Made by a program: the position numbers and the translations under genes | Notes under the pieces: model-generated | What the model saw: the letters and a program-made list of their open reading frames with translations, nothing else | Told to the model about the DNA's origin: nothing | Databases searched by the model: none | Part shown: in pieces, positions 19,009 through 23,017 of the stretch | How the letters are laid out: the number at the start of each line of letters is the position of its first letter | Numbering within the stretch: position 1 is the first letter of the stretch | Assembly (NCBI GenBank): GCA_036516595.1 | Contig: DATECE010000090.1 | Coordinates: 1 to 25,816 of the forward strand | Origin: Minisyncoccota bacterium | GTDB taxonomy: Bacteria > Patescibacteriota > Minisyncoccia > Phycocordibacterales > UBA2100 | Length of the DNA: 25,816 nucleotides | Direction: 5' to 3'

Positions 19009-19653
19009 ATGAAATTCTTTCTGGGAACAAAAGGCCGCATGACGCAGGTCTTCGACGAGAGCGGTGTCGCGCATCCGGCGACGCTTGTAAGCGCAGCGCC
19101 CATGACCGTGACACAGGTCAAGTCGACCGAGGTGGACGGCTACAGCGCTGTCCAAGTTGGCGCGGGAGAGCGCAAGGAAAAAAACCTCAGCAAGCCAGTC
19201 CTTGGACACTTGTCCGCCGGAGGCGGATCCTCCTTTGGAGGAAAGGGCAAACCGTATCCTCGTTATCTACGCGAATACGCACCTGATAGCGCGCTCGAAA
19301 AAGGTGCAAGTATTGATATCTCGATTTTTGCGGCGGGGGACATCGTCGAAGTTGCGGCCATCTCGAAAGGCAAGGGTTTTCAGGGTGTGGTGAAGCGTCA
19401 TGGTTTTAGCGGTGGACCGCGCAGCCACGGTCAGAAGAACAAAGAGCGCGCGCCGGGTTCGATAGGCGGCGGCGGACGCGCAGGCGGACGTGTCATCAAA
19501 GGAATGCGCATGGCGGGACGCATGGGCGGGGACAGGGTAACGGTGAGAAACCTGCGCATTTTGCAGGTCGATACTGAGACCAACACCCTCGTGATTTCCG
19601 GCGCCATTCCGGGGCGGCCGGGGACGCTTGTCGAGGTACACGGGACAAAATAA
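19009..19653 (+). CDS. rplC: 50S ribosomal protein L3
   Basis: MKFFLGTKGRMTQVF, DGYSAVQVG, SKGKGFQGVVKRHGF, MAGRMGGDRVTVRNL, GAIPGRPG. Confidence 0.99.
   Translation: MKFFLGTKGRMTQVFDESGVAHPATLVSAAPMTVTQVKSTEVDGYSAVQVGAGERKEKNLSKPVLGHLSAGGGSSFGGKGKPYPRYLREYAPDSALEKGASIDISIFAAGDIVEVAAISKGKGFQGVVKRHGFSGGPRSHGQKNKERAPGSIGGGGRAGGRVIKGMRMAGRMGGDRVTVRNLRILQVDTETNTLVISGAIPGRPGTLVEVHGTK
19213..19242. repeat. 30-bp double-hairpin element, in-frame copy in rplC (SAGGGSSFGG)
   Basis: TCCGCCGGAGGCGGATCCTCCTTTGGAGGA. The second hairpin carries a compensatory TCCTCC/GGAGGA pair. Confidence 0.85.
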
Positions 19654-19683
19654 TCTACATTGCACCTGATTCAATTTGAAAGT

Positions 19684-20412
19684 ATGAAAACAGATATCTA
19701 CGACATACAGGGGAAGAAAGCGGGGCAGATTGAACTGCCCGAGAACATTTTCGGCGTGAAATGGAACAACGCGCTCATGCATCAGGTCGTCACCTCGATG
19801 CAAAGCAACGCACGCACACCGGTGGCGCACACAAAAAATCGCGGCGAGGTACGCGGCGGCGGTATCAAACCGTGGCGTCAGAAGGGAACTGGTCGCGCTC
19901 GCCACGGCTCCATCCGCTCTCCGATTTGGATAGGCGGCGGTGTAACCCATGGCCCGCGGAAAGAAAAGAATTACGCACGCGCCATCCCGAAGAACATGCG
20001 GATGAAAGCACTGTGCATGGCACTCTCGCGCAAACTCGCGGACGGCCAAGTGCTCTTCGTCGACTCCTTTGCCTTTAGCGCCCCGAAGACGTCCGATGCA
20101 AAAAAGGCACTCTCCGCGTTCAGCGGCATCAAAGGGTTCGAGAAGCTCTCGGCGAAGCAGAACGCAGCATTCATCGCGACGCCGGACTCGCGCGATGCGC
20201 TCGTGAAGAGCTTCCGCAACATCACCTCTGTCGGTGTCGGTAAAATCGTTGACCTCAATCCCGTCTCCGTACTCAAATACAAATTCCTCATTATCGAAAA
20301 TCCGGAAGCGTCGGTCGCCACGGTCGCGAAGCGCGCCGCGCGCAAGACGACAAAGAAGGCCGCAAAGTCCGCCGAAGGCGGATCCGCCTTCGGCGGAAAA
20401 ATCGCTCAATAA
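19684..20412 (+). CDS. rplD: 50S ribosomal protein L4
   Basis: HTKNRGEVRGGGIKPWRQKGTGRARHGSIRSPIWIGGGVTHGP. ATG at 19684 chosen as start. Confidence 0.99.
   Translation: MKTDIYDIQGKKAGQIELPENIFGVKWNNALMHQVVTSMQSNARTPVAHTKNRGEVRGGGIKPWRQKGTGRARHGSIRSPIWIGGGVTHGPRKEKNYARAIPKNMRMKALCMALSRKLADGQVLFVDSFAFSAPKTSDAKKALSAFSGIKGFEKLSAKQNAAFIATPDSRDALVKSFRNITSVGVGKIVDLNPVSVLKYKFLIIENPEASVATVAKRAARKTTKKAAKSAEGGSAFGGKIAQ
20368..20397. repeat. 30-bp perfect palindrome, in-frame copy in the rplD tail (SAEGGSAFGG)
   Basis: TCCGCCGAAGGCGGATCCGCCTTCGGCGGA equals its own reverse complement and consists of two 6-bp-stem triloop hairpins. Confidence 0.9.
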
Positions 20413-20418
20413 ACGTAT

Positions 20419-20802
20419 ATGGCACTCTTCGGTTCAAAAACAAAAAAGTCCGCCGCAGGCGCACCCTTTCTCGGAGGAAAAAAGGAGGCAGCTTCGGCAG
20501 GGGTAGGACATATCTCTTCGCGCTCGCTCGCGAACGTACTTCTGCACGCTCGCATTACAGAAAAAGCGACGGATCTTGCTGGCGCATCCGTCTACACCTT
20601 CGATGTGGCGCCTTCTGCCACAAAGCGCGACATCAGGCAGGCAGTACAGGCGCTCTACAGCGTCTCGCCGCGCGCCATCCGAATAGTCACGGTACCGCGC
20701 AAGAGCGTCTACAATCGCCGCTCAGGTCGCATTGGTTTCAAGAGCGGTGGCAAGAAAGCATACGTTTACCTCAAGAAAGGGGAGACCATAACTATCACAT
20801 AA
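20419..20802 (+). CDS. rplW: 50S ribosomal protein L23, with N-terminal extension
   Basis: ARITEKA, YTFDVAPSATKRDIRQAVQALYSV, GFKSGGKKAYVYLKKGETI. Position between rplD and rplB. Confidence 0.96.
   Translation: MALFGSKTKKSAAGAPFLGGKKEAASAGVGHISSRSLANVLLHARITEKATDLAGASVYTFDVAPSATKRDIRQAVQALYSVSPRAIRIVTVPRKSVYNRRSGRIGFKSGGKKAYVYLKKGETITIT
20449..20478. repeat. Degenerate in-frame copy of the 30-bp element in the rplW N-terminus (SAAGAPFLGG)
   Basis: TCCGCCGCAGGCGCACCCTTTCTCGGAGGA. 22/30 identity to the rplD copy, with the same length, frame and K...GGK context. Confidence 0.6.
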
Positions 20803-20835
20803 ATTGTTATGAACGGAGTGAATTACAATTTTGTG

Positions 20836-20888
20836 ACCCTGTTAAATCCCGCCATCGGCGGGAGCGGCGAAGCCGCATTTAACAGGGT
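20836..20888. repeat. Intergenic branched palindromic (REP-like) element
   Basis: Outer 12-bp inverted repeat accctgttaaat/atttaacagggt encloses two triloop hairpins, cccgcc-atc-ggcggg and gcggc-gaa-gccgc. Confidence 0.75.
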
Positions 20889-20933
20889 GGAAGTTATTTC
20901 TAAATTCGCTTTGCTCATTAAGAAAAACTAACC

Positions 20934-21797: not shown

Positions 21798-21829
21798 AAG
21801 AGTCCGCGCAAGCGGACTCTTTACGTTTT
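21798..21829. terminator. Bidirectional terminator between rplB and a convergent small gene
   Basis: aagagtccgc, GCAA loop, gcggactctt (21798-21821), then tacgtttt. The minus strand is followed by cgactttt. Confidence 0.7.
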
Positions 21830-22060
21830 GAGCAGATACTTTCCGAGGGTGAACCGGCGTTGCCGTGAATACGCACGCACGGTGTCGTCGTCGAGCGCGA
21901 CGCTCGCGCCGAGCTGCTTTTCCCAGCCTGCCCCGTTCATGCGCACGCTCGCTCCGCGGTAGCCGAGCTTGCCACCGGTCACCACGTACTGAGTGCCGTA
22001 GATATCGAACACCCTATCTTCAGGCTCCAGCGGAGCCCATGCTTGAGCGTCGTCGCTCAT
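21821..22060 (-). CDS. Small hypothetical protein (79 aa) inserted antisense within the S10 cluster
   Basis: MSDDAQAWAPLEPEDRVFDIYGTQYVVTGGKLGYRGASVRMNGAGWEK... with GGAGG just upstream of the ATG. The stop abuts the hairpin. Confidence 0.6.
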   Translation of the reverse strand: MSDDAQAWAPLEPEDRVFDIYGTQYVVTGGKLGYRGASVRMNGAGWEKQLGASVALDDDTVRAYSRQRRFTLGKYLLKT

Positions 22061-22184
22061 GATGTCCTCCGTTTCCCGCAAATTGCTGGCGAAACCTTAG
22101 CACGTTTCTCCATCCGGCGCAGGTCGAGATTACGCCACAGATACTGAACCTCGCAACACGAGGTCGATTTTTGCCTGAAATCAT

Positions 22185-22213
22185 TTGACTTTAGAGGCTG
22201 CTTCCGCTACATT
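22185..22213 (+). promoter_or_regulatory. Internal promoter for rpsS and downstream genes
   Basis: TTGACT (22185-22190), 17 bp, TACATT (22208-22213). Confidence 0.7.
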
Positions 22214-22250
22214 GTGCCCACTCCCGCACATGCGGGTTTTCAAATGCATT

Positions 22251-22592
22251 ATGGCGCGTAGTCTCAAAAAGGGTCCCTATGTGGACGAAAAGCTGATGAA
22301 AAAGGTCATTGCCCGCAAACCGAATGCTGGCTCTATCAAGACGTGGGCGCGCGCGAGCATGATTGCGCCAGAATTCGTCGGCTACACATTTGCGGTCCAT
22401 ACAGGACGCGTGTTTGACGATGTCTACGTCTCGGAAGACATGGTCGGTCACCGTCTCGGTGAATTCGCCCCGACGACCAAATTCGTTCGCCACGGCGGCA
22501 AGATGCAGAAGGAGACCGAGCTGGCCGCCAAGGCCGCGGAGATAGCTGCCGCGCAGGCAGCCAAGGCGACCGCCGAGACTGCCAAGAAATAA
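22251..22592 (+). CDS. rpsS: 30S ribosomal protein S19, with Ala/Lys-rich tail
   Basis: [51 protein letters not shown]. Confidence 0.99.
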
Positions 22593-22612
22593 TCCGACAC
22601 TACCGACACACT

Positions 22613-23017
22613 ATGAAAGCGCTCCTCAAGAACTATCATCAGTCACCCCGCAAGGTACGACTCGTCGCGGATGTCATTCGCGGCAAATCAGTACTCGTGG
22701 CGCGCGAGGCGCTTCGCTTTTTGGATAAGAAATCTTCCCCCGCAATTGTGAAATTGCTTGAGAGCGCAGTCGCCAATGCACGGAGCACCGGAGCACATGC
22801 CGAGGACCTCTTTGTGAAGACCATCACCGTCAACAAGGGTATGGTGACGCGTCATTTTCGCCCGATGGCCCGCGGTCGTGCTGCACGCTCTGCCAAGACG
22901 ATGAGCATCGTCGCAATCGAGCTTGGCACGGGCGCCGCTCCGAAGGTCGCGAAGTCGGCCCAAGGCCGATCCGCCTCGGGCGGAAAGGCGGCTAAGAAAG
23001 TAGCAAAGGCGGAATAA
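22613..23017 (+). CDS. rplV: 50S ribosomal protein L22
   Basis: QSPRKVRLVADVIRGK, KLLESAVANA, RHFRPMARGRA. Confidence 0.98.
   Translation: MKALLKNYHQSPRKVRLVADVIRGKSVLVAREALRFLDKKSSPAIVKLLESAVANARSTGAHAEDLFVKTITVNKGMVTRHFRPMARGRAARSAKTMSIVAIELGTGAAPKVAKSAQGRSASGGKAAKKVAKAE
22955..22984. repeat. 30-bp double-hairpin element, in-frame copy in the rplV tail (SAQGRSASGG)
   Basis: TCGGCCCAAGGCCGATCCGCCTCGGGCGGA. The first hairpin carries a compensatory TCGGCC/GGCCGA pair. Confidence 0.85.

Follow-up and report, generated by a model that had tools for sequence, protein, structure and literature searches.

Paired hairpins of 15 nucleotides form the conserved unit of a miniature insert in essential genes of a Minisyncoccota bacterium

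A 30-nucleotide (nt) element of two adjacent, very small GC-rich hairpins is found, as copies inserted in frame, in about twenty essential genes of an ultra-small groundwater bacterium of the Minisyncoccota (assembly GCA_036516595.1), among them ribosomal protein genes on contig DATECE010000090.1, of which positions 1 to 25,816, the whole stretch analysed, are called here the window. The conserved unit of this element is the 15-nt stem-loop, and the stems have been kept by paired substitutions. The 30-nt unit is most readily understood, at a probability put near 0.55, as a miniature insertion element without genes of its own, whose hairpin would be read as single-stranded DNA (ssDNA) by a nuclease and whose solo copies would be filtered by the reading frame.

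Conservation of the stem-loop

The genome of the window (G000; 628 kb in 99 contigs, 74% complete) was scanned together with a complete genome of the same genus (G011, 764 kb scanned). The element was defined as two adjacent hairpins, each with a 6-bp stem and a 3-nt loop, built from modules of the type TCCNCC-N3-GGNGGA that are inverted relative to each other. The twin is regarded as the unit because every perfect TCCGCC hairpin of G000 falls within one. Copies were accepted with up to 5 mismatches across the 24 stem bases, background beginning at 6; the reversed pattern gave 0 matches at this cut-off in the two genomes and approximately 0 across the 116 genomes of the genus. Within the cut-off lie 19 copies in G000, besides a decayed one in rplW, and 42 in G011, and these 61 copies served as an unbiased set for the covariation alignment.

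In this alignment 98.2% of the cells of the local 15-nt hairpins are paired, against 88.7 +/- 0.7% after shuffling. Both-sided changes occur in 7 of the 12 stem pairs, and double-changed cells number 48 where 13.9 +/- 2.4 were expected (0 of 500 shuffles). Slid controls stayed flat, at a covariation score of 0.044 or less against the observed 0.256. Pairing across the full 30-nt palindrome was below the shuffled value (85.3% vs 87.6%), with 3 double changes for 10.2 expected, and the two loops are reverse complements of each other in 12 of 57 copies, for 16.5 expected by chance. The stems thus covary and the loops drift, mostly by transitions (GGA/GAA/AAA and TCC/TTC/TTT, for example), around a consensus of NRA for loop 1 and TYN for loop 2, from which it follows that the two modules stand inverted. 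The four positions that close the loops (CC and GG) varied in just 2 of 122 hairpins.

The codons point in the same direction. Opposite stem position 4, Gly is encoded by GGC where the partner base is G (71 of 76 cases) and by GGA where it is T (37 of 38); synonymous Gly codons therefore follow the opposite arm, which excludes a peptide-level cause. TCC, GCC and GGA dominate in the element, far beyond their shares of only 23%, 26% and 18% of the Ser, Ala and Gly codons of the host genes, and paired changes substitute residues (A to S, S to P, G to R). One stem variant, TCAGCC/GGCTGA, creates a TGA stop and has been found only where it is untranslated, in the intergenic copy at C31:1128 and in an L10 copy, beyond a TAG stop in its loop. 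The original prediction, that selection or copying conserves the 15-nt hairpin and neither the 30-nt palindrome nor the peptide, is upheld by these results: the hairpins covary, the palindrome does not, and the Gly codons track the opposite arm. The covariation check that it had proposed for a larger set of copies was answered clearly by the excess of double changes and by the pairing, both measured against shuffled controls.

The window holds four intact copies of the 30-nt unit and one decayed copy, listed here with host genes:

6133..6162, + strand: twin-hairpin element in an N-terminal extension of rpsJ (S10); TCCACC-AAA-GGCGGA (one A.C mismatch) followed by TCCGCC-TCC-GGCGGA
19009..19653, + strand: rplC, host gene (Pfam Ribosomal_L3)
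19213..19242, + strand: twin-hairpin element in rplC (L3); TCCGCC-GGA-GGCGGA (19213-19227) followed by TCCTCC-TTT-GGAGGA (19228-19242); peptide SAGGGSSFGG
19660..20412, + strand: rplD, host gene (Pfam Ribosomal_L4)
20368..20397, + strand: C-terminal tail of rplD (L4), twin-hairpin element; 30-nt palindrome, perfect throughout, loops GAA/TTC; peptide SAEGGSAFGG
20419..20802, + strand: rplW, host gene (Pfam Ribosomal_L23)
20449..20478, + strand: decayed copy at the N-terminus of rplW (L23); TCCGCC-GCA-GGCGCA CCCTTT-CTC-GGAGGA; peptide SAAGAPFLGG
22613..23017, + strand: rplV, host gene (Pfam Ribosomal_L22)
22955..22984, + strand: twin-hairpin element in the C-terminal tail of rplV (L22); TCGGCC-CAA-GGCCGA (22955-22969) followed by TCCGCC-TCG-GGCGGA (22970-22984); peptide SAQGRSASGG

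Matches to the hairpin pattern number 11 in the window, where 2.43 were expected and none of 100 shuffles arrived at 11. The rplC element is predicted to fold into two hairpins (RNA -18.0 and DNA -11.2 kcal/mol, with z-scores of -3.1 and -4.6), and that of rplD into a single 13-bp hairpin (RNA -27.9, DNA -18.4 kcal/mol). In the rplW copy uncompensated changes break the stems, and its fold z-score is about 0. Hairpin 2 of rplC and hairpin 1 of rplV carry paired changes that keep the 6-bp stems, in exactly the sequences on which the original prediction had been built.

Insertion sites and host genes

The element adds exactly 30 nt, or 10 codons, without target duplication. Its usual point of insertion lies immediately 5' of an AAR (Lys) codon that is present in empty orthologs, and comparisons with these show exact 10-residue gaps. 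The codon after the element encodes Lys in 44 of 57 copies, against a background of 6.9%, and base -2 is T in 33 of the 57. As Lys already stands in most empty alleles, it is a feature of the target and not a part of the element. In rplC the element was placed between Leu and a Lys that predates it: among the 29 L3 sequences of the genus, 21 read GHLK-DL with an exact 10-residue gap, another 6 read GK with a longer gap, and only that of G028 shares the insertion site. The C-terminal element of L4 is absent from the other 29 loci of the genus, and that of rplV from the G011 ortholog. The rpsJ site is filled in G011 too, and at the position of the decayed rplW copy intact copies are found in G003, G011 and G089.

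About 58 of the 61 copies (roughly 95%) lie within open reading frames (ORFs) and 3 are intergenic. The hosts include the ribosomal proteins L10, S10, L3, L4, L22 and L23 as well as IMPDH, MscL, an MBL-fold protein, GyrA, sigma-70, DnaG, FtsK, RecG, FolP, trigger factor, GlmS and PNPase. By the longest ORF, 53 of the 61 are read in the frame that gives S-A-x-G-G twice. The eight exceptions comprise several gene-end copies that do stand in this frame (L25, MscL, L10), the 3 intergenic copies and 1-2 that could not be placed, so that all confidently placed genic copies share one frame, Ser-Ala-x-Gly-Gly twice. The two other frames, Pro-rich and Arg-rich, would have been purged by selection. The orientation of solo copies relative to the host gene is biased 30:10 toward that of the nuclease cassette described below (p = 0.002).

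A clean case of filled and empty alleles lies in non-coding DNA. At a site reading GC^AAAG/AAAA, 4 genomes carry the twin hairpin, 4 are empty, and 2 have a different insert at the same point. The surrounding region in G000 (G000:C31:1040-1240, locus L262) is conserved across the genus, in 10 or more of its genomes, and its blocks include GCTACGCCGCACG and AATACGCACAGAGCGTGCGT…ATACTAACAAA; it is a hot spot of insertion and may represent an unrecognised RNA or a leader. This locus matched no Rfam family, tRNA or tmRNA, and Rfam likewise returned no match in the window or in the empty alleles of the locus. Among 2.9 million viral contigs just 2 exact matches to the element were found, which does not support carriage by phages, and full-text literature searches retrieved no published description of it.

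Origin of the compensated variants

The paired changes that first drew attention to the stems are real, and they did not arise in the genes in which they were noticed. The rplC 30-mer is identical to the copy that adjoins a GIY-YIG gene in G094, the rplV 30-mer stands in G035 too, there within another gene, and hairpin 1 of rplV is also the first hairpin of a GIY-YIG cassette in G027. Since they recur base for base elsewhere, the compensations in rplC and rplV were not born there and represent inherited subfamily modules.

The frequencies of intact and broken stems in G000 and G011 tell a similar story. Intact non-consensus stems fall into 7 types with 48 copies and 1 singleton, and broken stems into 14 types with 19 copies and 10 singletons. 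By number of types, broken stems are thus commoner than compensated ones (14 vs 7). The difference lies in the intact variants, which multiply and are shared between genomes, whereas broken ones stay mostly singletons, as would be left behind by a filter that acts when copies are made. Uncompensated decay is seen in the rplW copy and in a G027 copy at a site of the C31 type. In the orthologous non-coding copies of G000 (C31) and G078, a single compensated pair is the only difference within the element, and the flanks are 77% identical over the aligned stretch, with higher identity beside the element.

Distribution across genomes

Copies were found in 52 of the 116 genomes of the genus, at 0 to 35 per genome, and six other families of the order also carry the element. 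On a tree of L3, L4 and L23 it is present in 12 of 31 genomes, scattered in a manner that needs 11 changes, and the sister genomes G011 and G080 hold 35 and 0 copies in the genus-wide count. Some sites are filled in distant genomes too, namely those in the L23 N-terminus, PNPase, RecG, the S3 C-terminus, DnaG, GyrA, FtsK and GlmS. These shared sites are read here as hot spots of repeated insertion; they could also reflect old insertions combined with frequent clean loss. Pairs of copies at the same site were considered as a test of selection in place and set aside as confounded, given that, on so patchy a tree, shared descent is no more likely than independent insertion at the same hot spots.

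A candidate partner nuclease

A candidate for the enzyme that would act on the element was recognised in G011, where an ORF of 91 amino acids with a single GIY-YIG domain (G011:C1:264938-265210) is preceded by a twin hairpin 21 nt upstream of its ATG and is flanked by tRNA-Ser(CGA) and tRNA-Glu. GIY-YIG genes were located by Pfam matches (PF01541) in the genus and by protein searches. The search of the genus with the G011 protein returned a distinct top tier at 56-65% identity, in G003, G014, G028, G078 and G094. With G011 included, 6 of 6 top-tier genes have the hairpins directly upstream, against 0 of 16 lower-tier GIY-YIG loci; Fisher's test gives a value of about 1e-5 for this link, in genomes that are related and not independent. 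Among 401 genomes of the order the only close ortholog outside the genus is that of G405, from another family, and it shows the same layout.

All 7 close orthologs have the hairpins 0-21 nt upstream of the ATG and none at the 3' end, where a tRNA gene stands. The order is [GCC-hairpin][TCC-hairpin] in 6 of the 7 cassettes and is reversed in G003. In G078, G094 and G405 an orphan 5' half of tRNA-Glu ending in TTTT is followed by the twin hairpin and then by CAAG, from which it follows that the cassette, [twin hairpin][GIY-YIG][tRNA-Glu], occupies the anticodon loop. This site resembles the target of the solo copies. A second GIY-YIG lineage, in G027, has TCGGCC-caa-GGCCGA and CCAGCC-tag-GGCTGG before its ATG and targets tRNA-Ser(GCT). 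The cassette nuclease has no NCBIfam match; its best sequence matches in the PDB are the UPF0213 proteins 1zg2 and 1ywl (E about 2e-4). The highest-scoring GIY-YIG loci of the genus, including two in G000, have no family hairpin alongside, and the link is confined to the one subfamily found through G011.

Two further observations concern these loci. In 4 of the 7 cassettes (L206, L207, L208 and L233) the 3' arm of hairpin 2, GGAGGA or GGAGGG, has TCCTCC as its pairing partner and is separated from the nuclease ATG by 9-14 nt; this arm might, speculatively, be a sequestered Shine-Dalgarno sequence that controls translation of the nuclease. In G027:C35 (locus L259:1162-1340) at least 5 family hairpins, several with 4-nt loops, are crowded within about 180 nt, just upstream of a GIY-YIG match in a UvrC-like ORF of 429 amino acids.

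Comparison with known elements

The element behaves most like three known groups, the Rickettsia palindromic elements (RPEs), the REPINs and the Ssn-SRM systems, and is a member of none of them as defined. RPEs are reportedly palindromic repeats that lie in frame in housekeeping genes, are translated as extra surface segments and contain no transposase. In-frame insertion into protein-coding genes is seen here too, whereas RPEs have a length of 100-150 bp and are not known outside Rickettsia, and the present element measures exactly 30 nt, has an AAR-adjacent target and comes with a candidate partner nuclease. Yeast mitochondrial GC clusters and 'byp' elements are tiny GC-rich mobile inserts of variable length that form hairpins within coding genes, the byps being bypassed by the ribosome. 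They share with the present element small size, GC-rich hairpins and a location within protein-coding genes; they differ in being organellar and variable in length, where the element described here has a fixed 30 nt, stands in frame and is presumably translated.

REP and REPIN sequences are short GC-rich hairpins arranged as inverted doublets, with the stem covariation also met here, which in their case is taken as a sign of single-stranded structure; their mobilisation is ascribed to an enzyme that acts in trans and reads the hairpin. However, REPs are extragenic, bear a GTAG/CGTC tag and border their RAYT gene, in contrast to an intragenic element that is missing beside the five Y1 genes inspected. 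The 'peel and paste' elements of the IS200/IS605 type resemble it in the recognition of ssDNA hairpins, in a short target without duplication and in a bias of strand or orientation, and differ in their Y1 HUH enzyme and in the architecture of their ends; no TnpA or TnpB is linked to the present element.

Ssn proteins are single-domain GIY-YIG enzymes that act as site-specific ssDNA nucleases, and their genes are flanked by cognate hairpin repeats (Chenal et al. 2025, PMC11893778). The likeness extends to a single GIY-YIG domain of about 90 amino acids (91 here), to a gene that borders a short GC-rich hairpin repeat which is also dispersed in the genome, to hairpin variants that go with nuclease variants and to a copy number that varies widely among related genomes. 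In contrast to the SRM systems, the hairpin is here a 30-nt twin that borders the nuclease gene on a single side, this gene belongs to a cassette joined to a tRNA gene, and about 95% of the dispersed copies are located within genes, in frame. Among proteins of solved structure the nearest are the UPF0213 proteins, at only E = 2e-4, and cleavage by the cassette enzyme is a prediction.

Mechanism and alternative explanations

A copying mechanism that reads the single-stranded stem-loop is the best explanation of these data. The stem-loop, extruded in ssDNA, would be the recognition target of a propagation machinery, and the most likely enzyme would be the Ssn-like GIY-YIG nuclease of the cassettes. 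New copies would come only from sources with intact stems, so that compensated variants would spread and broken ones disappear. The solo twin hairpins would be cassette ends copied into T-rich^AAR sites, after which purifying selection on the translated loop would clear the other two frames. Hairpin-templated correction during replication would probably add some compensation in place. The dispersal step itself is something that we infer. More tentatively, and with clearly less confidence, the twin hairpin might be the active end of an undescribed mobile class that relies on a single-domain GIY-YIG ssDNA nuclease and would parallel IS200/IS605 with REP. The cassette would home into tRNA anticodon loops (TTTT^CAA), and copies of its 30-nt solo ends would enter TT^AA-like sites all over the genome.

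Several points weigh against a nuclease-driven insertion element. The link to the nuclease is one of adjacency and co-occurrence, the related genomes are not independent, and metagenome-assembled genomes are incomplete. The copy-rich assemblies of G099, G100, G136 and G086, and that of G000, contain no close ortholog and no hairpin-adjacent GIY-YIG gene; for G000 the absence applies to an assembly that also lacks genes for tRNA-Glu, tRNA-Gln and tRNA-Ser(CGA). The activity known for Ssn enzymes is the cutting of DNA and not its insertion. A regular expression built from the published SRM motif (PMC11893778) gave 5 matches in G000, which overlapped 0 of the 19 elements. The sites filled in distant genomes could equally be old insertions kept in place by selection. 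Finally, the pair of copies in G000 and G078 shows that some compensation does happen in place.

This last case bears on a purely mutational origin of the pattern. Template-switch correction of imperfect palindromes is established in the genetics of Escherichia coli, and such quasipalindrome correction, by copying one arm from the other, could revert or 'compensate' stem mutations without any selection. The clean in-place change in non-coding DNA fits this, as does the predominance of transitions in the loops, which is expected for unpaired bases. Nevertheless, correction leaves unexplained the identical 30-mers in unrelated genes and genomes, the AAR target, the orientation bias and the nuclease cassettes, and the decayed copies (that of rplW and that of the C31-type site in G027) hold several breaks that were never corrected. 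As a full account it is doubtful, and it is probably a contributor, not the whole story. Selection in place for a role in RNA, by which hairpins in the mRNA would stabilise the transcript, pace the ribosome or bind a regulator, is unlikely. The 6 sites filled in both G000 and G011 have stems that are 92% identical, third codon positions included, against 59% in the flanks and 64% in the loops; such identity is equally expected of young independent insertions. Single breaks in the sense strand are G.U in 10 cases and A.C in 3, a bias that is not significant and to which other genomes add A.C cases. The predicted RNA hairpins are stable, yet copies also occur in non-coding DNA and past stop codons, and Rfam offers no match. 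The host genes are unrelated in function and most orthologs in the genus are without the insert, those of the nearest relatives included, which speaks against both the co-regulation of ribosomal protein mRNAs and the conserved mRNA role that had been suggested for the hairpin. The suggestion that selection or copying acts on a single-stranded stem-loop is thus retained for copying, and the HUH, co-regulation and mRNA options found no support.

Mobilisation of a REP- or REPIN-like element by an HUH (Y1/RAYT) transposase, which had also been raised, is quite improbable. Genes for Y1_Tnp (about 235 amino acids) are present in 108 of the 116 genomes, often in several copies, and the loops of the element show it to be one hairpin doubled in inverted arrangement, as in REPINs. 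These genes are, however, equally common in genomes with zero copies (G001 has 10 genes and 0 copies), and the intragenic location of nearly all copies is foreign to such elements. The PF01797 search of the 116 genomes and the flanks of five inspected Y1 genes of G000 and G011 led to the rejection of an HUH or RAYT link: none of the 5 adjoins a TCCGCC hairpin. The inspected genes (G000:C50:871-1569, minus strand, and G011 loci L166 and L168-L170) include 4 with a perfect palindrome of their own on each side, different for each gene, as in CAATGAGATG-N-CATCTCATTG, AATCCAAGAGG…CCTCTTGGATT and CTCCGGAGGTT-T-AACCTCCGGAG. The sequence Ser-Ala-x-Gly-Gly-Ser-Ala-x-Gly-Gly-Lys might also be a selected linker or modification tag, with the palindrome as a side effect of codon choice, and the common frame, the Lys that usually comes next and a loop 2 that encodes mostly Ser, with one AGC codon among them, are in keeping with it. 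This idea is highly improbable in view of the codon fixation far above host usage, the covariation of synonymous Gly codons with the opposite arm, and paired changes that alter residues or even create a stop; moreover, the Lys belongs to the host gene, and the hairpins are kept in non-coding copies.

Other palindromes in the window and its genome

Two other palindrome families were observed. One has three copies (window 20836-20888, G000:C5:2187-2245 and G000:C6:5214-5268), each a branched structure with a conserved 12-bp outer stem (ACCCTGTTAAAT…ATTTAACAGGGT) around two GC-rich hairpins; the inner hairpins are wholly different in sequence between copies, while the two-hairpin layout is kept, and Rfam gave no match. 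The other, TGATATGATATATCATATCA, is dispersed in about 7 copies in G000 (C6:10157, C6:12379, C16:3669, C51:6828, C55:7066, C80:8532 and C92:2901). The spacer between rplB and rpsS (window 21777-22250) is unusually long, at about 470 nt, and contains a terminator-like hairpin, GAGTCCGCGCAAGCGGACTC, near 21800-21822 and an ORF of 86 codons on the opposite strand at 21821-22081.

Significance

Few of the repeat elements known to colonise protein-coding genes would be as small as this one. Its hosts are bacteria with genomes of less than 1 Mb, where each essential protein that it enters gains a loop of 10 residues. The covariation amounts to a natural experiment in which the structure of DNA or RNA, and not the protein, is under constraint. 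If a mobile class driven by GIY-YIG nucleases is indeed at work, its solo ends in essential genes would survive only as a flexible Ser/Ala/Gly loop, and distinct stem variants would mark distinct nuclease specificities. The link to a tRNA-targeting GIY-YIG protein makes the spread of mini-palindromes testable with one protein of 91 amino acids and one 30-nt hairpin. The inserts also confound alignments and phylogenies of the marker proteins of the candidate phyla radiation (CPR), and they can be used as markers of recent activity of the element.

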